A stretch of 13,887 bases of DNA from a virus. Under the pieces are notes generated by a model that made no database searches, was not told where the DNA came from, and was given only the letters and a program-made list of their open reading frames with translations. Positions 2,903 through 11,480 of the stretch are shown here, one piece after another. The stretch lies in the UHGV virus genome UHGV-0185895; one strand, given 5' to 3'. Each line of letters opens with the position of its first letter. Position 1 is the first letter of the stretch. A program made the translations under genes and the position numbers.

Positions 2903-3780
2903 GCGTTAAATTATCCGCATATGTCTGGGATGGTTGCGCCGCGGCAGGCATCAAAGGCAATAAATTACTGATCATGCTTCGCCTGGCTGATTACGCCAGT
3001 GATGAGGGGATCGCATACCCAAGCGTTGCGACGATTGCGCGCCAGCTCGGCGCCGGGCGCAGTACCGTTATCACTTTGATCGGCGAGCTGGTTAAAGATG
3101 GCTGGCTGACCAAAAAAGAACGGCGTCTCGGTCAGCGCAGCACCAGCAATCTCTACACCTTGAATGTGGCTAAGCTGCGGCAGGCTGCAAATGAACATTA
3201 TGAGGGTCCAAAATCTGGACGTTCAGAATCTGAACCTTCGGAATCTGGACGTCCAGAAACTGAACGTCCGAAAGAGCCAAAAAAACAGGGTTCTCAGGGT
3301 CCAGAAACTGGACACGATCCGTCAGTAAATTCAAAACCAGATCCATCAGTAGGATCTAAACCCCTTTGTCCGGTTCCTGCGGAACCCGACCCGGAAGTGG
3401 TTATTACCGATCTTGCTAAGCAGGCCCTTTCACACCTGAACCTCACAACCGGTTCACGTTTTCAGGTATGCAAAACCTCCCTGGAACATATCCGGGGGAG
3501 GCTGCGCGAAGGATTTACACCTGACGAACTGGCGCTGGTGGTCGATTACAGCGCTGAGAAGTGGGGAAAAGATCTAAAAATGGCTGAATATCTGCGACCA
3601 ACCACGCTCTTTCTGCCGTCAAAATTCCCTGGATATCTCCAGTCTGCAACCAAGTGGGCCGCTGCCGGTCGCCCGAAATGTGTTGATGGAAAATGGGCTA
3701 AAGCCGGAAGTGAAGACCAGGCATTCAAGTCCAGCTATTCAGATGTCAATTACACCGTGCCAAAAGGATTCCGTTCATGA
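2899..3780 (+). CDS. Phage replication initiator-like protein (N-terminal HTH domain plus conserved phage C-terminal domain)
   Basis: 293 aa; N-terminal region (YVWDGCAAAGIKGNKLLIMLRLADYASDEGIAYPSVATIARQLGAGRSTVITLIGELVKDGWL) resembles replication-initiator HTH domains; low-complexity Ser/Pro/Glu linker encoded by iteron-like DNA repeats; GTG start. Confidence 0.7.
   Translation: MSVKLSAYVWDGCAAAGIKGNKLLIMLRLADYASDEGIAYPSVATIARQLGAGRSTVITLIGELVKDGWLTKKERRLGQRSTSNLYTLNVAKLRQAANEHYEGPKSGRSESEPSESGRPETERPKEPKKQGSQGPETGHDPSVNSKPDPSVGSKPLCPVPAEPDPEVVITDLAKQALSHLNLTTGSRFQVCKTSLEHIRGRLREGFTPDELALVVDYSAEKWGKDLKMAEYLRPTTLFLPSKFPGYLQSATKWAAAGRPKCVDGKWAKAGSEDQAFKSSYSDVNYTVPKGFRS
3212..3316. repeat. Iteron-like direct repeats inside the replication initiator gene; candidate origin of replication
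   Basis: AATCTGGACGTTCAGAATCTGAACC (3212-3236) and AATCTGGACGTCCAGAAACTGAACG (3242-3266) are 30 bp apart with about 22/25 identity; a third partial copy TCCAGAAACTGGAC lies at 3300-3313; perfect 12-bp palindrome CTGGACGTCCAG at 3245-3256. Confidence 0.45.
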
Positions 3781-4034
3781 AATCGCAGGTTATATCACTA
3801 ACCCCTGAACAACTGCGCCGCCAGGCTGAAGACATGCTCAAACGTGCCGAACAACTGGAAAAGACGGGGGCCACAAAGGACGCGCTTAAAAAAGCGCTGG
3901 TACCGGCGTTGCGTGAACTGATGCAGGCCAAACATCGCGCACAGCTGGCAGTTGATGAGCTGGTTGATAGTGTTGCAGATCTGGAAGGCCGAGTGTCTCA
4001 TGTCGAGAAAGTAGTGCAGGAGGTGCTGGCGTGA
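3777..4034 (+). CDS. Hypothetical small, predicted coiled-coil protein
   Basis: 85 aa; ATGA overlap with the upstream stop and GTGA overlap with the downstream start; charged heptad-like sequence. Confidence 0.55.
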   Translation: MKSQVISLTPEQLRRQAEDMLKRAEQLEKTGATKDALKKALVPALRELMQAKHRAQLAVDELVDSVADLEGRVSHVEKVVQEVLA

Positions 4035-4927
4035 CGAATGCATATTGTGAATCGCTGGCGGCCATGCGCGCTGCACCGTCCCATTTTCTGAAAGACGTTG
4101 GTGATCAGTGGCGCACGCCTGATCTGCTGTTCTGGGGCGTTAACGCAATGTTTGGACCGCTGGTACTGGACCTGTTTGCTGACGATAGCAACGCAAAATG
4201 CCCGGTATGGTTCACCGCCGAAGACAACGCGCTGACGCAAGATTGGTCCGCTCGTCTGGAAGAACTTGGCGGCGCTGGCTTTGGCAACCCACCGTATAGC
4301 CGCTCCCAGTACCACGAAAAGCAGGCGATAACTGGCATGACGCACATCATGAATTACGCGTCAGCGCAGCGTGAGAAGGGCGGGCGCTATGTATTTCTCA
4401 TCAAAGCAGCACCGAGCGAAACATGGTGGCCAGAAGATGCCGATCACATCATGTTTATTCGTGGTCGTATTGGATTCGACCTCCCGGCGTGGTTTGTCCC
4501 TGCTGATGATAAGCAAAAGCCCACCAGCGCGTTTTTTGCGGGCGCCATTGCCGTGTTTGATAAGGCCTGGCGCGGGGAGCGGTTCGGCTATATCCACCGT
4601 GCGGATCTGGAAAGGAAAGGGCAAGCGTTCATGATGCTGGCGCAGTTTGCTGTTGGCAATACTCCAGCACAGGTAATGTCGCAGCCGGCGGCAGTAGAAC
4701 CACTCGCAACGCCTACGCAATTACCAGAGACGGAATCGCGTATTTGGCCACTGGAGGTAGGGCTTGTGTTTCGACAGGTAGAAGGATCCGAAGGACTGGA
4801 GCCGTCCCAGCAAAACAAGCTGATGGCGCAAATTAACCAGCTGTGGCTGGAGCGTATGCCCACCAGCGAGATCATCACTGTTGCTGGTGGACTGGTAGAA
4901 AGCATGCAGGGGGTGAGCCATGCGTGA
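4031..4927 (+). CDS. Phage-type DNA N6-adenine methyltransferase with a C-terminal extension of roughly 100 aa
   Basis: 298 aa; catalytic NPPY motif (GFGNPPYS); N-terminal region (WRTPDLLF...LDLFADDSNAKC) resembles phage Dam-family methyltransferases; the C-terminal third has no motif I recognise. Confidence 0.8.
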   Translation: MTNAYCESLAAMRAAPSHFLKDVGDQWRTPDLLFWGVNAMFGPLVLDLFADDSNAKCPVWFTAEDNALTQDWSARLEELGGAGFGNPPYSRSQYHEKQAITGMTHIMNYASAQREKGGRYVFLIKAAPSETWWPEDADHIMFIRGRIGFDLPAWFVPADDKQKPTSAFFAGAIAVFDKAWRGERFGYIHRADLERKGQAFMMLAQFAVGNTPAQVMSQPAAVEPLATPTQLPETESRIWPLEVGLVFRQVEGSEGLEPSQQNKLMAQINQLWLERMPTSEIITVAGGLVESMQGVSHA

Positions 4928-6770
4928 GCTGATTGTTGATAATTTTGCTGGCGGTGGTGGGGCATCTACCGGGATAGAAATGGCGATCGGCCGCAGCGTT
5001 GATATTGCCATTAACCACGACGAAAACGCCGTGGCCATGCACCGGACGAATCACCCGGACACGCTTCATTATTGTGAAAACGTCTTTGACGTTGACCCTG
5101 TCGCTGCGACAGGTGGAAAGGCTGTCTGGTTTGCATGGTTCAGCCCGGATTGTACCCACTATTCAAAGGCGCGCGGCAGTAAACCGGTAAAACGTGAGAT
5201 TCGTGGGCTGGCTTGGGTATCTGTTCGCTGGGCATTGGATGTTCGCCCTCGTGTAATGGCTCTCGAAAATGTTGAAGAATTTAAAACGTGGGGCCCGCTG
5301 CTTTCATGTGAGATGCGTCCTGATCCTAAGCGTTCTGGTGAAACCTTCCTGGCATTTGTTGGAATGCTTTCCACTGGTATACCTGCGGATCACCCGGCTC
5401 TGTACGAATGTTGCGAATTTCTCGGCATATCCTCGGATGGCAAACAAGCCAAACGACTGATTGCTGGCCTCGGGTATAAGGTCGAATATCGCGAACTGCG
5501 TGCCAGTGATTATGGTGCTCCGACGATCCGCAAGCGATTCTTCATGTTGATGCGTTGTGACGATAAACCCATTGCCTGGCCGGGAGTCACTCACGGTGAC
5601 CCTAAATCCGCAGCAGTTAAATCCGGAAATTTGGCACCATGGCGGACAGCTGCTGAGTGTATCGACTGGTCTATTCCTGCACCATCGATATTTGACCGTA
5701 AAAAGCCGCTGGCCATTAACACGTTGAAACGGATAGCGCGCGGCATCCAGCGGTTTGTCGTCGAAAGTGATAATCCGTTCATCGTCAAATGCAACCACAC
5801 CACAACACGCGGTAAATATGATTGCTTCCGCGGACAGTCGCTGGCCGATCCCCTGCAAACCATCACCAAAACCCACGGTTATGCGCTGGCGTTACCGACG
5901 TTGGTTCCATTCCTGGCAGGTAATGGGGGTAGCGAGTACCAGGCGAAACCGCGGCCATTGAATAAACCCGCTCATACCATCCTTAAACAGTCTCGCTCCT
6001 GCCTGGTTGCGCCAGTTATCGCGCGTCAGTTCGGCGCCAGCATCGGCCACCGGGCGGATGAACCCAGCGCAACAATTACCGCTGGCGGCGGGGGGAAGTC
6101 ACAGCTTGTCGCGGCCACACTTATTCAGATGGGGTATGGCGAACGTGTAGGGCAGTCGCCGCGCGTTCTAAATCTGCGTAAACCGCTGGGAACAGTTGTA
6201 GCTGGTGGCAATAAATTTGCCGTAACAACTGCGTTTTTGGCGAAACACTACGGCGGGAACTATACCGGCCCGGGCGTCGGACTGGACGATCCTGCACACT
6301 CAGTTACCACAGTCGATCACCATGCGCTGGTTACGTCTCATCTGGTTAAACTGCGCGGTACCTGCCGCGATGGCCAGCGCACCAGTGAACCAATGCCGAC
6401 AATCACCGCTGGAGGTCAGCATGTTGGAGAGGTTCGCGCGCTGCTGGCGGCTAATGATTACGACGAGCGCCGGGCGGATCAGGTCAAAGAGTTCCTGAAT
6501 TCTTTTGGCGTCAGCGAACTGGTGACGATTAAGGGTATTGTTTACCGCATTGTTGATATCGGAATGCGCATGCTGCAGCCGCATGAACTTTACCGCGCTC
6601 AGGGATTCCCTGACTGGTACATCATTGATCGTGACTACCGCGGCAAGAGGTACTCGAAAGAGAAACAAGTCGCCAGGTGCGGAAACGCCGTGCCGCCGCC
6701 CTTTGCTGAGGCGATTGTAAGAGCAAACCTTCCTGAAATTTGTGTTTCTGGTCGGCGTGAGGTTGCATGA
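4920..6770 (+). CDS. DNA cytosine-5 methyltransferase-like protein with a long repeat-containing variable region
   Basis: 616 aa; motif I FAGGGG, motif VI ENV, motif IX-like RMLQPHELYRAQGFPDWY and motif X GNAV are present in canonical order, but motif IV reads FSPDCTHYS rather than PCQ; ATG overlaps the upstream stop (ATGCGTGA). Confidence 0.8.
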   Translation: MRELIVDNFAGGGGASTGIEMAIGRSVDIAINHDENAVAMHRTNHPDTLHYCENVFDVDPVAATGGKAVWFAWFSPDCTHYSKARGSKPVKREIRGLAWVSVRWALDVRPRVMALENVEEFKTWGPLLSCEMRPDPKRSGETFLAFVGMLSTGIPADHPALYECCEFLGISSDGKQAKRLIAGLGYKVEYRELRASDYGAPTIRKRFFMLMRCDDKPIAWPGVTHGDPKSAAVKSGNLAPWRTAAECIDWSIPAPSIFDRKKPLAINTLKRIARGIQRFVVESDNPFIVKCNHTTTRGKYDCFRGQSLADPLQTITKTHGYALALPTLVPFLAGNGGSEYQAKPRPLNKPAHTILKQSRSCLVAPVIARQFGASIGHRADEPSATITAGGGGKSQLVAATLIQMGYGERVGQSPRVLNLRKPLGTVVAGGNKFAVTTAFLAKHYGGNYTGPGVGLDDPAHSVTTVDHHALVTSHLVKLRGTCRDGQRTSEPMPTITAGGQHVGEVRALLAANDYDERRADQVKEFLNSFGVSELVTIKGIVYRIVDIGMRMLQPHELYRAQGFPDWYIIDRDYRGKRYSKEKQVARCGNAVPPPFAEAIVRANLPEICVSGRREVA

Positions 6771-7828
6771 GAGCGTTACTCACCCCTGAGATTGTGCCAC
6801 GCCTCGGCGTGGTTCTATTTAAGCCCGGCCGTGATCTGATGCACCTGTTTTCTGCCGGGCGTGTTTTAGTCGAGGCTGAACCACAAAATATGGCCCGCTT
6901 GCCATCTGGTCGTGTCCCTGATGCCCGACAACCTTTAGCGGAGGATTCCAGCCTGCACGTATTCTTTTCCGATGAGCGTGTGATTCGTGCTGCTGGTGGA
7001 TTGCCAGCGCTTGAACGGTGGCTGTTTCTCCGGCTGAAGAGGTGCCAGTACCCTCATTCCGAGTACCACCATAACGAGATGGTAACGATGCGACATCCGC
7101 CTGGTGCGTTGCTGGTGTGCTGGCATTGTGACAATAAACTGCGGGAGCAGTCGACTCCAGCTATCGAGGCGCTGGCACTTCGTAATGTAGTCGACTGGGT
7201 AATAGATACTGTGCTGATCGGGCTCGGTTATAACAAAGAACGCTCTCTTTCAATCGCAGAGTTGTGCTGGTGGGCAGTTCAGTCAGGTATAGCCGATGCC
7301 ATTACGGAGACGATGGCGCAGCGTGGTCTAGGGTTGCCTGAAGAGCCGTTCCTGTCGGTGTATAAAGAAAGCGATATCCGGCCTACTTTACCGGCCACCA
7401 GCATTCTGCAGGAGAAACTGCCAGCTGCAGGCACAGCAAGGCAATGCAGGCGCAACGAAAATGTCCAGGCGCACCAGGACCAGCCGAAGGGGCTTGCGCT
7501 GACTGCCGATCCGGAATCGCCGGAATCTTTCATGCTCAGGCCAAAGCGCCGTCGCTGGGTAAGCAAGACTTATACCGACTGGGTTAAGCATCAACCATGC
7601 GAATGCTGCCGCAGACCAGCTGACGATCCGCATCATGTCATCGGCCATGGCATGGGCGGTACCGCAACCAAAGCCCACGATCTCTTCGTGTTTCCTCTGT
7701 GCAGAGAGTGCCACGACGAGCTACATGCCGATGTTAACGCCTTTGAAGAGAAGAATGGCACGCAGTTGGAGCTGCTGTTCCGTTTTCTTGATCGAGCTAT
7801 GGCGATCGGCGCAATTATAAAAGCATAG
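6767..7828 (+). CDS. DUF968-like prophage protein (YdfU-like) with a C-terminal Cys/His cluster
   Basis: 353 aa; C-terminal HQPCECCRRPADDPHHVIGHG...PLCRECHDELH cluster typical of DUF968; ATGA overlap with the methyltransferase stop; lies directly upstream of the Q-like gene, as ydfU does relative to quuQ in E. coli Qin (recalled, not searched). Confidence 0.75.
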   Translation: MRALLTPEIVPRLGVVLFKPGRDLMHLFSAGRVLVEAEPQNMARLPSGRVPDARQPLAEDSSLHVFFSDERVIRAAGGLPALERWLFLRLKRCQYPHSEYHHNEMVTMRHPPGALLVCWHCDNKLREQSTPAIEALALRNVVDWVIDTVLIGLGYNKERSLSIAELCWWAVQSGIADAITETMAQRGLGLPEEPFLSVYKESDIRPTLPATSILQEKLPAAGTARQCRRNENVQAHQDQPKGLALTADPESPESFMLRPKRRRWVSKTYTDWVKHQPCECCRRPADDPHHVIGHGMGGTATKAHDLFVFPLCRECHDELHADVNAFEEKNGTQLELLFRFLDRAMAIGAIIKA

Positions 7829-7848
7829 TGTATGGAGCGTTGAGCAGT

Positions 7849-8547
7849 ATGAACCTACAAAACCTGGAATATACCCGTATTGAAGTGCGTCGAGCGTTGT
7901 TGGATTTATCCGGCGCAACAAAGGGACAACTCGAGGCATTCAGCGAGAACCCACCGGCAGATAAGAATAAAAATCCGCGGTGCTCTCGCAATCTTGTCGA
8001 TCTGGAAGGGGGGATTGGTTGTGGCCCGTCGGTGGTTAAGGCACTGACTACTCCAGTTTATGTGATGGAGACCCGCAGCCGCCGCCGGCCAATGCCGCCC
8101 ATCAATGATATTGAATTCGGTTATTCACCGTGGAGGCGCGCTGTAAACCTGCTGGAAGAACATCACCAGGCATGGGTGCGCTATTGCTATGGCTTCGATC
8201 TAAATTTCCGTTACCAGACGCTGATGTGTGAACACGTCTGGACTGAATATCAGAACTATCAAGTAGGCAGGGCGATCCAATCGAGAGTAATAAAAAAGCT
8301 TGTGGGGCTGGTCTGGCTGGCTGGCCAGGAGGTTGCAGCGACCCGGAATAATGAGACGTATAAAACCTACGCTGGCGCAGCTCTGGCGCGTATGGTTTCA
8401 GTTGACCGCTCAACCTGGAAAAGGGTTTATGCCGGGCATTGGGAACGACTTAAAACGGCTTTCATTGAGATGGATAACAACGCATTGCAGAACATCTACA
8501 CATATCATGAGCAAATAGAAGAGGTCAGAACGGAAAAATGTGATTAA
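7849..8547 (+). CDS. Q-like late-gene antiterminator (tentative)
   Basis: 233 aa from the ATG at 7849 (GGAG at 7834-7837); last gene of the early operon, followed by a promoter-like region and a strong intrinsic terminator; call rests mainly on position and synteny. Confidence 0.5.
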   Translation: MNLQNLEYTRIEVRRALLDLSGATKGQLEAFSENPPADKNKNPRCSRNLVDLEGGIGCGPSVVKALTTPVYVMETRSRRRPMPPINDIEFGYSPWRRAVNLLEEHHQAWVRYCYGFDLNFRYQTLMCEHVWTEYQNYQVGRAIQSRVIKKLVGLVWLAGQEVAATRNNETYKTYAGAALARMVSVDRSTWKRVYAGHWERLKTAFIEMDNNALQNIYTYHEQIEEVRTEKCD

Positions 8548-8572
8548 AGTTGGCTATCTCCTTTAATCAGGC

Positions 8573-8601
8573 TTGCAAAATGCAACAAAATGAGCGATAT
8601 T
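8573..8601 (+). promoter_or_regulatory. Candidate late promoter (PR'-like)
   Basis: TTGCAA (8573-8578), 17-nt spacer, GATATT (8596-8601), between the Q-like gene and the terminator; hexamers are weak. Confidence 0.3.
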
Positions 8602-8638
8602 TTGAGGTAATTTGATATCTTGCCATTTTTATAAATAA

Positions 8639-8662
8639 CCTCGCTTCGGCGGGGTTTTTTGT
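8639..8662 (+). terminator. Intrinsic terminator (tR'-like) downstream of the Q-like gene
   Basis: Six-pair stem (one G-U) closed by a TTCG tetraloop, CCTCGC-TTCG-GCGGGG at 8639-8654, followed by a T6 run at 8655-8660. Confidence 0.6.
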
Positions 8663-8692
8663 TGGTTTATCTCGCACTCTCCCTCTCTCTGG

Positions 8693-8747
8693 ATAAACAA
8701 AAATGTTTATATTTTAGCTTGATTTAATAAACAAAAATGTTTATTAT
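8693..8747 (+). promoter_or_regulatory. hicAB promoter with two identical palindromic operator candidates
   Basis: Identical 18-bp palindrome ATAAACA-AAAA-TGTTTAT at 8693-8710 and 8727-8744; TTGATT (8719-8724), 17-nt spacer, TATTAT (8742-8747), with the second palindrome covering the spacer and -10. Confidence 0.5.
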
Positions 8748-8776
8748 TATCTCAAGTTAAACAGACAGGAGGAGGA

Positions 8777-8953
8777 GTGAAGCAAAGCGAGTTCAGGCGT
8801 TGGCTTGCAGCTCAAGGGGCAGAGTTTAAAGATGGTACCAACCACTTAAAAATTTACCTCAACGGCAAGCAAACGATAATGCCGAGACACCCGGGCAAGG
8901 AAATCCCGGAGCCGCTGAGAAAAGCAATTTTGAAGCAACTCGGTATCAAATAA
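8777..8953 (+). CDS. hicA: HicA-family toxin (mRNA interferase)
   Basis: 58 aa from the GTG at 8777 with AGGAGGAGG RBS; MKQSEFRRWL...HLK...MPRHPGKEIPEPLRKAILKQLGIK closely resembles HicA as recalled; below the 60-aa cut-off of the ORF track. Confidence 0.8.
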   Translation: MKQSEFRRWLAAQGAEFKDGTNHLKIYLNGKQTIMPRHPGKEIPEPLRKAILKQLGIK

Positions 8954-9000
8954 AAACCAGCCCTCCGGGGCTGGTACTCGTGGAGATTCACTTAATCAAT

Positions 9001-9408
9001 ATGAGATATCCGGTAAATTTTGAGCATGACGAAACCGGCTGGGCGGTATTTTTCCCAGATATCCCCGAGGCAATGACGGGAGGGGCAACCAGGGAGGAAG
9101 CGTTAGAAATGGCGCAGGATGCCCTGGTTACGGCGTTTGATTTCTATTTTGACGACCGCCGGGAGATCCCCGCACCTTCAGCAGAGGGTGAGGCGTTTGT
9201 TGAAGTGCCATCAAGCGTGGCGGCGAAGGTATTATTGCTAAACCGCCTGGTCAGTACCAATACCAGTAACGCTGAACTGGCCCGCATGATTAATACGCGC
9301 CCTCAGGAGGTACAGCGAATCGTGTCTCTTGGTCATAGCACCAAGATCGACACCATTCAAAAAGCACTATCGGTACTAGGACAAAAAATGGAAATAATTG
9401 TCCGGTAA
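9001..9408 (+). CDS. hicB: HicB-family antitoxin (N-terminal HicB fold, C-terminal DNA-binding domain)
   Basis: 135 aa from the ATG at 9001 (MRYPV...); DIPEA, TAFDFYF and VAAKVLLLN segments match E. coli HicB as recalled; lies downstream of hicA in the usual order. Confidence 0.8.
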   Translation: MRYPVNFEHDETGWAVFFPDIPEAMTGGATREEALEMAQDALVTAFDFYFDDRREIPAPSAEGEAFVEVPSSVAAKVLLLNRLVSTNTSNAELARMINTRPQEVQRIVSLGHSTKIDTIQKALSVLGQKMEIIVR

Positions 9409-9432
9409 TCAGTGCAGTCCCCACTATCAAAA

Positions 9433-9460
9433 GGTCGTCCTCTGTGGCGGCCTTTTTTAT
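9433..9460 (+). terminator. Intrinsic terminator downstream of hicB
   Basis: Hairpin 9433-9452 (7-bp stem including two G-U pairs) followed by a T6 run at 9453-9458. Confidence 0.45.
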
Positions 9461-9515
9461 TGCCCTCATTCCTCACTTCATTTCACGCACACAGCACCTC
9501 AACAGGAGGTGTCGG

Positions 9516-9764
9516 ATGAACAGAACCATGCCTGACAAAATTGCTTCGGCAGTGGGTTATTGCACTTCGGGCGGCCTCATCTGCTGGGGTGGTCTTGCCA
9601 AATGGATTCATGATCTCGACTGGAACCTGGTAGCGGTTATCGGAGGATTTGTAATTGGCCTGCTGACATTTTTCGTTAACTTCTATTTCAAGCGGCGCCA
9701 GACCAGAGCATATGAAAAAGCCCTGGCGCGCGGATATATAACCCCGCCACCGCAGGATCACTGA
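9516..9764 (+). CDS. S: Class II holin, phage-21 S-type (pinholin-like) with a dual-start motif
   Basis: 82 aa from the ATG at 9516 (AGGAGG 9504-9509); begins MNRTM with a second in-frame ATG at 9528; two TM-like segments; sequence (GYCTSGG...FVNFYFKRRQ) resembles phage 21 S as recalled. Confidence 0.75.
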   Translation: MNRTMPDKIASAVGYCTSGGLICWGGLAKWIHDLDWNLVAVIGGFVIGLLTFFVNFYFKRRQTRAYEKALARGYITPPPQDH

Positions 9765-9765
9765 C

Positions 9766-10305
9766 ATGGCATCGATGAAAACAAAACTCAGCGCTGCCAT
9801 GCTGGCGCTCATTGCTGCCGGTGCATCTGCGCCTACTCTAATGGATCAGTTCCTTGATGAGAAAGAAGGGAACAGGCTGACCGCGTATCGCGATGGCAGC
9901 CAGGGGATCTGGACTATTTGCCGCGGTGCCACGCGTATTGATGGTAAACCCGTCACGCAGGGTATGAAACTGACCCAGACCAAATGCGATGAGGTGAATG
10001 CTGTCGAACGTGATAAGGCGCTGGCGTGGGTTGATCGGAATATCCACGTTCCACTGACCCCACCGCAAAAAGTCGGCATTGCCTCATTCTGTCCGTACAA
10101 CATCGGTCCCGGTCGCTGCTTCCCGTCGACGTTCTACCAGCGGATTAACGCTGGCGACCGTAAAGGCGCATGTGAAGCGATTCGCTGGTGGATTAAAGAC
10201 GGAGGGAAGGATTGCCGGGTGCGCTCCAATAACTGCTACGGGCAGGTAACGCGCCGTGATCAGGAAAGTGCGCTGACGTGCTGGGGGCTTGATGATGGGC
10301 GCTAA
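9766..10305 (+). CDS. R: SAR endolysin, T4-lysozyme-like (R21-like)
   Basis: 179 aa; Ala/Gly-rich weakly hydrophobic N-terminus ([18 protein letters not shown]) consistent with a signal-anchor-release domain; E34, D43 and T50 spaced as in the lysozyme catalytic triad; ATG 2 nt after the holin stop. Confidence 0.85.
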
Positions 10306-10804
10306 AGCAAAAGGTTTTGTGATTGGTTTGATCCTCACCGGTGCATTTGGCGCAGGTGCATTCTGGAAGGATACACAGTGGCAATCGAAATGGCTGCAAC
10401 GGGATATTGACGAATCGGCACAGGCAGTGAATGCGCAAACCGTCGCCCGGATGATTGAACAGGGGCGCTTGATCGCCCGCGATGAGGCCGTACAAGATGC
10501 TCAAGCTCAAACCGCTGCAGCGCGTGCTGCTGCTGCTAATCTCTCTGGCACTGTTAACCAGCTGCGCCAGCAGGCAAAAGCCTTTGCCACCCGCCTGGAC
10601 GCCGCAAAGCACACCACAAGTCTTGCCGCTACCGTCAGAAGCAAAACAACCGGCACCACCGCCGGAATGCTCGCCGACATGCTTGGAGACCTTGCAGAAG
10701 AAGCTCGACGGTATGCTGAAATCGCTGACGAACGCTACACCGCAGGAATGATCTGTGAGCGGATTTACAAATCGGTGAGAACTTCTATCCCTGCTAAGGG
10801 ATAA
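10292..10804 (+). CDS. Rz: Rz-like i-spanin
   Basis: N-terminal TM segment ([17 protein letters not shown]) followed by a long Ala/Gln-rich helical region; overlaps the endolysin 3' end; Rz1-like ORF embedded in another frame. Confidence 0.7.
10497..10751 (+). CDS. Rz1: Rz1-like o-spanin lipoprotein, embedded within Rz
   Basis: [23 protein letters not shown] has a lipobox (LTSC, Cys23) and is followed by a Pro-rich mature region (PLPPAWTPQ...), resembling lambda Rz1; wholly inside the Rz gene in a different frame. Confidence 0.7.
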
Positions 10805-10830
10805 CATAATCAAAATCCCTACTAGGGGAT
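10786..10830. repeat. Two related palindromes at the Rz stop and just downstream
   Basis: TATCCCT-GCTA-AGGGATA (10786-10803, perfect 7-bp arms, overlapping the Rz stop) and ATCCC-TACTAG-GGGAT (10815-10830), each followed by AAC. Confidence 0.4.
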
Positions 10831-10843
10831 AACCGAGGACAAT

Positions 10844-11029
10844 ATGACCTTAGCCCAGTGCATTAAAATGCAGGAAGATGCAATATGTAACAAGGATGTG
10901 GAGGTTATAGATCTGAGAATGATTAATATCTGGGGACAGCGGCAAGCACCATGTGATAGCAAGCCGCTGATGGGGGAGCCGCACTCAGAAACCACAGTAG
11001 TATTTCTACCGGCATGGCTTAACTATTAA
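10844..11029 (+). CDS. Questionable small ORF (61 aa), AT-rich, convergent with the protease gene
   Basis: GAGGA 5 nt upstream of the ATG; 3' end overlaps the protease gene 3' end by 11 nt; no recognisable motif. Confidence 0.3.
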   Translation: MTLAQCIKMQEDAICNKDVEVIDLRMINIWGQRQAPCDSKPLMGEPHSETTVVFLPAWLNY

Positions 11030-11480
11030 ACAACAACTCGAATTTGTTATTTTTGTAGTCAAGCGTGAATGAGCAGTGTTGAAGAAACTCCATCCCAAGA
11101 ATTGCTTTGAAGTGTCGCCCATTATTAACTAAAGGGGTTGCATGAAATTCTTGAGAAAAAAGGCGCCCGTCGTTTGTTAGGCTCATAACCGCCCTGCGAG
11201 CTGTTGAATTAATTGTAGAAGTTCCTCCCCGAACTTGGATTTCGCTGGTAACTGGGAGTTCTAATTCATCAGCAAAATCATTATCGATATAACAGGCGGT
11301 AGCACCAGTATCGATCAGAACCATAGCTGATTCATGTTTCTCGGGGTTCGGTATTTGATAATGATTATCTTTGTCAACCGCTGCAAATGTGACAACTATC
11401 ACGGGTACAGCCATTGGTTGCGGTGTAGTTGAAAATTCCCCGCTGCTGTTCATAAAGTACACTGGTAAATTAATTGCCAT
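11019..11480 (-). CDS. Retropepsin-like aspartic protease (single-domain, presumably active as a homodimer)
   Basis: 153 aa; active-site signature LIDTGAT (D57-T58-G59-A60), Gly-rich flap VRGGTS and C-terminal ILGMEFL motif; opposite strand to all neighbours; sampled 60-nt stretches give roughly 35-45% GC against about 60% near the terminase genes. Confidence 0.7.
   Translation of the reverse strand: MAINLPVYFMNSSGEFSTTPQPMAVPVIVVTFAAVDKDNHYQIPNPEKHESAMVLIDTGATACYIDNDFADELELPVTSEIQVRGGTSTINSTARRAVMSLTNDGRLFSQEFHATPLVNNGRHFKAILGMEFLQHCSFTLDYKNNKFELLFNS

Follow-up and report, generated by a model that had tools for sequence, protein, structure and literature searches.

In Stx and other lambdoid phages, cargo genes lie between the Q/PR'/tR' region and the lysis genes, downstream of the Q-controlled terminator. 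The virus genome UHGV-0185895, analyzed here as a window of 13,887 nucleotides, holds two small genes in that slot, which raises the questions of whether they form a self-regulated toxin-antitoxin cassette, which of the surrounding signals belong to it, and how it fits into the late transcription of the phage. The best explanation, in which we place high confidence, is a self-regulated hicAB moron in the Q-to-lysis slot of a Klebsiella/Raoultella lambdoid prophage, with the late module upstream and the lysis cassette downstream (Table 1). An earlier sequence-only reading had proposed much of this arrangement; every feature that it listed was found in its place, and its interpretation held on nearly all points, the one correction being to what the upstream terminator does.

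Table 1. Features of the hicAB cassette and its flanks (positions in the window)
Feature	Position	Strand	Description
Q82-family late antiterminator gene (context)	7828-8547	+	PF06323 Phage_antiter_Q, E 3.9e-35, 122 bits
Invariant block, candidate PR'-like late promoter	8570-8602	+	-35 TTGCAA 8573-8578, -10 GATATT 8596-8601, 17-nt spacer
Intrinsic terminator, tR'-like	8637-8662	+	Scan 8637-8656 plus T-run; -14.8 kcal/mol, z = -4.7
hicAB cargo (moron), extent relative to sister phage KpnBHU6	8661-9494	+	834 bp, blastn
Distal HicB operator candidate	8693-8710	.	ATAAACA-AAAA-TGTTTAT; upstream of -35
Candidate cassette promoter	8719-8747	+	Scan; -35 TTGATT 8719-8724, 17-nt spacer, -10 TATTAT 8742-8747
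Proximal HicB operator candidate	8725-8746, core 8727-8744	.	9-nt arms TAATAAACA/TGTTTATTA
Shine-Dalgarno region of hicA	8767-8776	+	AGGAGGAGGA; read from sequence, shared by homologues
hicA	8777-8953	+	Predicted 58-aa toxin, mRNA interferase family, GTG start
GC-rich hairpin	8956-8975	+	3 nt past hicA stop, eight pairs, -17.7 kcal/mol
hicB	9001-9408	+	Predicted 135-aa antitoxin/repressor; N-terminal HicB (partial RNase H), C-terminal helix-turn-helix
Intrinsic terminator of cassette	9429-9460	+	-14.0 kcal/mol, z = -3.3, then TTTTTTATT; between hicB and holin gene
P21-type (pin)holin	9516-9764	+	PF04971, E 4.7e-23; opens lysis cassette

Identity of the hicAB pair

The two genes are an ordinary HicA/HicB toxin-antitoxin pair that had been annotated before now. 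They are co-oriented neighbors with a gap of 47 nt, a promoter-like site upstream, and a terminator after hicB only, as in a type II operon, and both products match their Pfam families above the cut-offs and align end to end with the E. coli K-12 pair. The 58-aa, GTG-started toxin of the sequence-only reading is borne out by the open reading frame on the plus strand, and hicA of E. coli is likewise GTG started. Its product scored 38.1 bits against HicA_toxin (PF07927; cut-off, 27), which places it in that family, and residues 1 to 57 align with E. coli HicA (6hpb_A; E 3.5e-22). His23 in "GTNHLK" of the window falls on the histidine in "GSNHLK" of E. coli HicA, which we take to be the catalytic histidine, His23, of that protein. 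We predict HicA to be an RNase of the HicA toxin family (dsRBD-like fold family).

The HicB-like antitoxin proposed beside it scored 34.8 bits against HicB_lk_antitox (PF15919; cut-off, 27), which identifies the N-terminal domain, and its residues 1 to 133 align with E. coli HicB (6hpb_B; E 2.6e-34). [quoted passage not shown] Alignment with the RHH-type HicB of Klebsiella phage KpnBHU6 covers the N-terminal 61 residues only. Structure prediction was skipped because the solved structures were matched end to end by sequence, and NCBIfam returned no match for HicA, HicB, or Q. The start of hicB was set to the ATG at 9001 by homology and public gene calls, while the ORF tool gave a GTG at 8980.

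NCBI names the exact sequences HicA family toxin and HicB family antitoxin (Klebsiella/Raoultella). The exact 135-aa HicB product is called in public assemblies, and the order Q, hicA, hicB, holin accompanies an identical HicB in 10 of the 10 public contigs listed. A near-identity DNA search with the cassette returned only a 113-bp Q-proximal block from phage records and nothing from complete E. coli genomes, the latter result ruling out the cassette as an E. coli element; a distant search returned chromosomal hicA only, at ~69% identity.

Such a module might be kept mainly for HicB, which would act against HicA-type toxins of the host or of competitors or cross-repress chromosomal hicAB, with HicA incidental or decaying. 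Phages often gain antitoxins or antitoxin mimics (PMC11594946, section 5.2), the operator core described below is common to many chromosomal hicAB loci, which makes cross-regulation conceivable, and the annotation of Cronobacter phage ENT39118, a carrier of the same cassette, has HicB only. We nevertheless consider this counter-defense role unlikely. The window holds an intact hicA that has a strong ribosome-binding site and encodes an aligned catalytic histidine; the gene lies directly upstream of hicB in 76 of the 83 homologue loci examined and beside it in all sister prophages listed; and in ENT39118 hicA is unannotated yet present and intact. The sequence-only reading proposed that the pair may serve prophage stabilization or abortive-infection-type defense, and either benefit is conceivable. 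For a defense role, PADLOC offered no support: it found nothing for HicA and related HicB only weakly to PDC-M64B, a candidate family (E 1.5e-4), and no catalogued system was recovered.

The upstream terminator and the Q module

Beyond the Q gene, which starts 21 nt further downstream in public calls (232 aa), a block of 33 nt is identical among the window, KpnBHU6, and Escherichia phage LLS, while its flanks diverge. The 29-nt core of this block was found in 17 IMG/VR contigs with Q detectable in 16 of them, and in those 16 it begins 26 to 55 bp past the end of the aligned Q homologue (66 to 96% identity). The block appears to hold the late promoter, with hexamers (8573-8601) that match the consensus at 8 of 12 positions, under the scanner threshold, and it probably also carries Q recognition sequences. 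The intrinsic terminator that follows is kept in KpnBHU6, and in LLS its stem is changed yet paired. Q, the conserved promoter region, and the intrinsic terminator together make up an antitermination module of the Q82 family (PF06323).

The sequence-only reading took this terminator and the one behind hicB as brackets that insulate the cassette as a Q-independent transcription unit, and a terminator-like hairpin does stand on either side. The downstream one is the cassette's own. It had been placed at 9433-9460; folding gave a hairpin at 9429-9456 plus the T-run, the hairpin being missed by a simple scanner, and hicB of ENT39118 is also trailed by an analogous hairpin and T-run. The upstream one, however, belongs to the Q module, since it is conserved beside Q and the invariant block in phages that lack this hicAB, and the similarity to KpnBHU6, with its other cargo, stops at 8660, directly past the T-run. 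Furthermore, late transcription has to run through the cassette to reach the lysis genes, which follow it in the same orientation and have no other evident late promoter. These observations make insulation from both sides very improbable; the terminator at 8637-8662 is most likely the late terminator that Q overrides, a part of the phage backbone, and should be annotated under the Q antitermination module. Expression in the lysogen independently of Q, which had also been proposed, would be permitted by a promoter of the cassette's own, although in lytic growth the cassette would stand inside the Q-dependent late unit.

A variable cargo slot

KpnBHU6 aligns to positions 6640-8660 and 9495-10807 of the window and carries 2.27 kb of different cargo in between, and ENT39118 shares 8693-9368 only (both by blastn). 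The view of this region as a cargo slot between Q and the lysis genes was upheld by the alternative cargos in KpnBHU6 and related contigs. There are several of these, and the most common is a different hicAB, of the RHH class. Within one Klebsiella prophage family, the same slot is filled by the HTH-class hicAB (+ strand) or by an unrelated RHH-class hicAB (- strand), an alternation which suggests selection specifically for an RNase module of the HicA type where the late operon begins. The presence/absence polymorphism among related phages, together with a predicted promoter and a terminator of its own, marks the cassette as a moron. Its downstream flank consists of the P21-type holin gene, followed by a lysozyme gene and an Rz-like gene.

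Candidate HicB operators and the cassette promoter

Two identical copies of the 18-mer ATAAACAAAAATGTTTAT lie 34 bp apart upstream of hicA, at the coordinates where the sequence-only reading had reported palindromes and proposed HicB operators. They are not perfect palindromes: each consists of 7-nt arms around a nonsymmetric AAAA center (7-4-7), with the core TAAACA-N4-TGTTTA, and the string printed in that reading had lost one A (17 letters). The proximal repeat extends across the promoter spacer and 3 nt into the -10. In the 13.9-kb window the core has these two exact sites only, against a chance expectation of 0.5 with up to 2 mismatches, and it was found nowhere else in the window, the immunity region included.

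In the 226 nt that precede hicA in E. coli, the sole close inverted repeat is GTAAACA-N4-TGTTTAC, which ends 32 nt ahead of the GTG, and the proximal repeat of the window matches it in both the half-sites and the 32-nt distance to the hicA GTG. In E. coli, HicB binds the inverted repeat hicO, which lies in P2, the promoter nearer to hicA (bioRxiv 10.1101/2023.12.08.570793; PMC11594946); from its position and from reviews, we infer that the E. coli repeat found here is hicO. Among 70 loci of HicB homologues, most have the motif (up to 2 mismatches) ~50 nt ahead of hicA, and the loci that bear it reach down to ~50% HicB identity in Enterobacterales, Burkholderiales, Pasteurellaceae, Moraxellaceae, and Acidobacteria MAGs. 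Many of them have a second copy 31 to 34 or 21 to 22 bp further upstream (31 to 34 bp in the close clade). Given the match to E. coli in half-sites and position and the recurrence upstream of homologous hicA genes, the two 18-mers are very probably HicB operators. The 34 bp between them do not amount to whole helical turns and relatives differ in this spacing, so cooperativity between the two sites is not implied. Their place in an AT-rich intergenic stretch directly past the late terminator, at the edge of the variable slot, might instead suggest sites for some regulator of the phage (repressor, Cro, Q, or an integration-host-type factor) or a scar left by recombination when the cargo was inserted. 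Such an origin is extremely unlikely, because the motif accompanies hicAB in nonphage chromosomes (beside yncJ/ydcR in E. coli and beside sugar-kinase genes in Photorhabdus) and alongside Q genes that belong to three separate families, and is missing from the rest of the window and from sister phages with other cargo.

The promoter that had been suggested for the cassette is matched by the promoter scan at 9 of 12 consensus positions, with a transcription start expected near 8754, and homologous loci keep TTGnnn between the operators and a TAnnnT -10 that overlaps the proximal operator. Two further promoter-like sites, within hicA (8853-8880) and, on the minus strand, within hicB (9260-9231), were not adopted, since the scan total of 3 sites is close to the 1.8 expected from shuffles and ENT39118 has weaker hexamers at the site inside hicA.

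Relation to known systems

The E. coli K-12 system (hicA/yncN and hicB/ydcQ; 6HPB; Gerdes class 3) shares the gene order, the GTG start of hicA, the C-terminal HTH of HicB, and the operator half-sites with their distance. HicA has 58 aa in both and HicB has 135 aa here against 138 aa in E. coli, at identities of ~61% and ~49% (tblastn), respectively. The E. coli pair is chromosomal (yncJ-hicAB-ydcR), whereas that of the window is prophage borne. E. coli hicAB has one operator and two promoters, of which the proximal one yields HicB only. The window has two operators and a single predicted promoter with its -10 under an operator, which would give a 23-nt leader with a full ribosome-binding site. 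It also has a hairpin behind hicA, which E. coli lacks.

Yersinia pestis HicA3-HicB3 also has a promoter with an operator pair around it, and its main operator overlaps the -10 (PMC11594946); by this review description the operator layout of the window is the same. The Y. pestis sites are 15 bp, its hicA-hicB spacer is 174 bp, and HicB3 is a tetramer that binds through exposed DNA-binding domains (PMC11594946). The same cassette as in the window occurs in Cronobacter phage ENT39118 (NC_019934), with HicB 79% and HicA 83% identical, both operators 34 bp apart, the hairpin, the terminator, and a location between a Q-like gene and the holin gene; ENT39118 differs in its lambda-type Q (PF03589) and in an additional minus-strand gene in the slot. 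In lambda-like phages of Mannheimia, hicAB lies within the late operon (PMC4553209), and HicA/HicB are listed as lysogen-expressed morons of the E. coli LF82 prophage Cyrano (PMC9928086). With the cargo of Stx phages the cassette shares the slot and its logic; unlike that cargo, it has its own terminator and a promoter predicted to be autoregulated, and it encodes a toxin-antitoxin pair rather than an exotoxin.

Proposed working of the cassette

[quoted passage not shown] In the lysogen, the sigma-70 promoter (8719-8747) would place hicA and hicB on one mRNA, HicB dimers on both operators, ahead of the -35 and across the spacer and -10, would hold expression low, and HicB would neutralize the HicA RNase. 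The terminator at 9429-9460 would halt this transcript ahead of the holin gene. In lambdoid phages, RNA polymerase modified by Q reads through the late terminator into the lysis and structural genes. During lytic growth, polymerase so modified at the late promoter would pass the terminator at 8637-8662, the cassette, and the cassette terminator and continue into the lysis and structural genes of this phage.

A conserved hairpin between hicA and hicB

The 7-bp hairpin reported at 8957-8974 is present as part of an eight-pair stem, with no U-tract on the plus strand. Hairpins occur in 37 of 55 distinct homologous intergenic regions (at least 35 nt) compared with 4.6% of shuffles, 5 of the 7 pairs show compensatory changes, and the homologous hairpins, in loci of Enterobacterales and Burkholderiales, start 2 to 9 nt past the hicA stop codon. 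Viewed in the window alone, the hairpin is read by the scan as a minus-strand intrinsic terminator. Termination on either strand was rejected as its conserved function, a plus-strand U-tract following in 0 of the 37 and the upstream A-tract that a minus-strand terminator needs being present in 5 of the 37. A search of Rfam over 8400-9600 found no family above its gathering score (the best, istR, at 25.9 versus 45 bits, lay over the terminator), so no known RNA family accounts for the hairpin.

The HicB:HicA ratio could be adjusted by the hairpin at the RNA level, for instance if it capped a processed hicB mRNA at the 5' end or formed a barrier to decay. If so, it would do the work of P2, the promoter that yields HicB only in E. 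coli, where the hairpin is missing. Taken jointly, control of the ratio by the hairpin and selection for a HicA-type RNase module in the slot form a reading that we offer tentatively, as possible and far from assured. Our literature search found no description of a post-hicA hairpin or of HTH/RHH hicAB alternation in a slot.

Implications

HicAB systems are well studied, prophage hicAB morons are documented, and the exact proteins are named in public records; the discovery value of the pair is accordingly small. The Q-to-lysis slot in this group of Klebsiella prophages is a swap site with methylase and HicAB cargo, and the comparative evidence is good enough to annotate the 18-mers as HicB operators. 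The conserved hairpin offers a small, testable lead on how the balance between toxin and antitoxin may be set in toxin-first operons.

Identity of the hicA and hicB genes

A hicAB pair is present in the window, including the GTG-started 58-aa toxin proposed by an earlier, sequence-only reading. [quoted passage not shown] The GTG start of hicA is no concern, since E. coli hicA likewise begins with GTG. For hicB, the ORF tool lists GTG 8980; the ATG start was adopted because it agrees with both the E. coli HicB structure and the gene product annotated in public assemblies. The pair is a class-3 hicAB (HTH-type HicB) in Gerdes' classification (bioRxiv 10.1101/2023.12.08.570793). NCBI already lists both exact sequences, under the names "type II toxin-antitoxin system HicA family toxin" and "HicB family antitoxin," for Klebsiella michiganensis and Raoultella planticola. 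Their 90% clusters take in over a thousand contigs of Klebsiella, so that a Klebsiella/Raoultella prophage is the most likely identity of the window.

Features of the hicAB cassette and its upstream flank
Feature	Position	Strand	Description
Terminator-like hairpin and T-run	8637-8662	+	
Distal and proximal repeats	8693-8710 and 8727-8744		Two identical 18-mers, ATAAACAAAAATGTTTAT, 34 bp apart
Promoter-like sequence	8719-8747	+	TTGATT-17-TATTAT
hicA	8777-8953	+	GTG start, 58-codon ORF; AGGAGGAGGA directly ahead
Intergenic GC-rich hairpin	8956-8975	+	8 bp, without U-tract; 3 nt past hicA stop codon
hicB	9001-9408	+	ATG start, 135 aa; 47 nt after hicA
Cassette terminator	9429-9460	+	Hairpin and T-run

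Probable operator repeats and the candidate cassette promoter

The two 18-bp repeats upstream of hicA had been described as identical palindromes, the second covering the -10. Their identity, positions, and overlap with the -10 hold, but they are 7-4-7 inverted repeats rather than perfect palindromes, and the string originally given was one A short. The arms of the proximal copy grow to 9 nt at 8725-8746, and the core TAAACA-N4-TGTTTA has no third site within the 13.9-kb window. The cassette has its own candidate promoter, as proposed, with the distal repeat upstream of the -35 and the proximal repeat over the spacer and first -10 bases.

The 226 nt preceding hicA in an E. coli K-12-type hicAB locus contain a single close inverted repeat, GTAAACA-N4-TGTTTAC, whose end lies 32 nt ahead of the GTG; the proximal window repeat shares its half-sites, its 4-nt spacer length, and its spacing from the GTG (32 nt). 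In E. coli, HicB is described as repressing P2, the hicA-proximal promoter, via an inverted repeat, hicO (bioRxiv 10.1101/2023.12.08.570793; PMC11594946), which would correspond to GTAAACA-N4-TGTTTAC. A wider survey drew on 80 loci, taking a single genome for each species along with two phage and E. coli references, and scored the 70 homologue loci with a placeable full hicA start. In most of these, the motif (≤2 mismatches) precedes hicA by ∼50 nt, and motif-bearing loci reach ∼50% HicB identity across Enterobacterales, Burkholderiales, Pasteurellaceae, Moraxellaceae, and Acidobacteria MAGs. The clade nearest the window has a second copy 31 to 34 bp upstream, with a conserved TTGnnn -35 between both sites, while in the Pantoea/Brenneria clade the second copy lies 21 to 22 bp upstream, its right half doubling as the -35. 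Yersinia pestis HicB3 has a similar layout, with two operators, the main one over the -10 (PMC11594946). Both the E. coli match and this conservation support the proposal that the 18-mers are HicB operators, and on such sequence comparisons HicB very probably binds both.

Six hicAB loci from Pantoea, Pseudescherichia, Brenneria, and Enterobacter (L028, L030, L034, L039, L051, and L053) show a 21-bp operator spacing (versus 33 to 34 bp); the right half of their distal copy, TGTTGAC, supplies the -35 element, an alternative promoter-operator layout within the same HicB family. The hicA leader GTTAAACAGACAGGAGGAGGA (8756-8776) is near-invariant over the close homologue clade and includes a third TAAACA half-site (8758-8763), and a half-site-like GGTTTAT lies at 8665-8671.

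The window -10 overlaps the 3′ end of the proximal operator, which would set the start near 8754 and leave a 23-nt leader with a full ribosome-binding site, so that hicA and hicB would both be translated from the cassette promoter. In contrast, the best E. coli -10 (TATACT) lies 8 nt further downstream, placing the start at or inside the ribosome-binding site, which would agree with the published P2 transcripts yielding HicB alone.

A conserved hairpin between hicA and hicB

The GC hairpin without a U-tract previously noted between the two genes is present, with 8 bp rather than 7. Among distinct hicA-hicB spacers of ≥35 nt, a stem of ≥6 bp starting ≤9 nt from the hicA stop was found in 37 of 55, versus 4.6% of shuffled controls; stable tetraloops are common. 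A terminator on either strand was rejected, as a downstream U-tract accompanies none of the 37 hairpins and an upstream A-tract only 5, although in the window the hairpin has the look of a minus-strand terminator. An alignment of 36 spacers, selected for bearing the hairpin, shows pairing-preserving double changes at 5 of 7 pairs. Together with the shuffle contrast and the scarcity of U- and A-tracts, these changes identify the hairpin as a conserved RNA structure with no terminator role. The hairpin is absent from E. coli K-12 hicAB, which has a second promoter for HicB alone. Speculatively, it might make the two cistrons differ in stability or in how they are processed.

The upstream terminator and late transcription

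A near-identity search with 8548-9470 returned phage records matching the first 113 to 116 nt only. Window positions 6640-8660 have a collinear counterpart in Klebsiella phage KpnBHU6; collinearity then breaks off for 2.27 kb of other phage DNA and resumes at window position 9495. When the window, KpnBHU6, and Escherichia phage LLS were aligned, a 33-nt block (8570-8602) that includes TTGCAA-17-GATATT was invariant, as was TAATTTGATA (8609-8618), between the candidate late promoter and the terminator. The terminator is kept in all three, the LLS stem being altered in sequence with its pairing intact. Of 17 IMG/VR contigs that contain a 29-nt core of this block, 16 have a detectable Q, and in these the core begins 26 to 55 bp past the point where the alignment to a Q82-family Q homologue (66 to 96% identity) ends. 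The segment 8570-8662 thus bears the predicted signature of a lambdoid late promoter, Q-loading region, and tR′-type terminator. Separately, TAATTTGATA appears to resemble the -10-like element of sigma-dependent pausing where Q proteins load.

The upstream terminator had been read as a cassette boundary, but it is conserved with the Q block in phages without this hicAB, and KpnBHU6 similarity stops at 8660. Because this terminator belongs with the Q block, the cassette (8661-9494) lies within the Q-dependent late transcription unit. The stx genes of Stx phages sit inside the same kind of unit, and hicAB is placed alike. In the lysogen, the cassette promoter would let hicAB be expressed, and the hairpin and T-run after hicB, present as described, would keep the transcript from the holin gene (9516); for lysis-gene expression, Q-modified polymerase would have to pass both terminators. 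The earlier claim of lysogen expression from the cassette's own promoter is retained, whereas Q-independence is not, given the position inside the late unit.

Alternative cargos in the Q-to-lysis slot

Contigs sharing the Q-proximal block carry three alternative cargos between Q and the lysis genes. In the first, an N6/N4 DNA methylase is accompanied by a small winged-helix-like ORF and by a different hicAB encoded on the minus strand (HicA, 63 aa; HicB, 136 aa); in the second, no hicAB was detected, and the methylase occurs either alone or alongside the small ORF; the third is the HTH-class hicAB (contig L100 and the window). Cargo 1, with a 63-aa winged-helix-like ORF, was seen in KpnBHU6 (3114-5384) and in contigs L096, L101, L102, L106, L107, and L109. 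Its HicB aligns with the window HicB over the N-terminal 61 residues only, and its C terminus is read as a putative ribbon-helix-helix type.

In Cronobacter phage ENT39118, a lambda-type Q and the holin flank the same cassette, complete with its two operators, hairpin, and terminator. Our neighbor survey covered 28 close-homologue loci, namely, 27 from different species' genomes and ENT39118. Q proteins of two further families lie nearby (PF03589 in six, PF06530 in two), neighboring holins belong to at least three families, and other loci are plainly chromosomal. The cassette is thus a mobile element that has entered one functional slot again and again. The proposed placement in a Q-to-lysis cargo slot agrees with the sister contigs and ENT39118, and prophage hicAB morons are documented (PMC4553209, PMC9928086, PMC11594946).

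Elsewhere in the window, a 616-aa C-5 cytosine DNA methylase (4920-6770, plus strand; PF00145 in three stretches) overlaps the end of a Dam-like methylase gene (4031-4927). Several sister prophages with the identical HicB lack it, and so does KpnBHU6, where window positions 4960 and 6640 are joined; it is a second presence/absence cargo. A 153-aa retropepsin-like aspartic protease (11019-11480, minus strand; Pfam gag-asp_proteas/Asp_protease_2), between the lysis cassette and the terminase genes, weakly matches the PADLOC candidate defense family PDC-M08B (E 1.2e-6); since it is found in only some sister prophages (L091 and L093), it is probably a further moron. The lysis cassette (9516-10804) is of the pinholin/SAR-endolysin type, with a P21-type holin that has two close in-frame starts (MNRTM...), a lysozyme with an N terminus that looks hydrophobic and signal-anchor-like, and an Rz-like gene (10289-10804) in which a +1-frame ORF (10482-10751), probably Rz1, is embedded.

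Significance

The sequence-only observation is confirmed, and its interpretation is substantially correct; one point, the upstream terminator together with Q-independence, needed correcting. A PADLOC search gave no match for HicA and a weak match of HicB to a candidate family; the suggested defense role extends beyond the evidence. This hicAB is a routinely annotated member of a well-characterized toxin-antitoxin family in a documented type of location, and it offers just two modest leads: the hairpin's conservation and the way two HicAB classes alternate within a single prophage slot.
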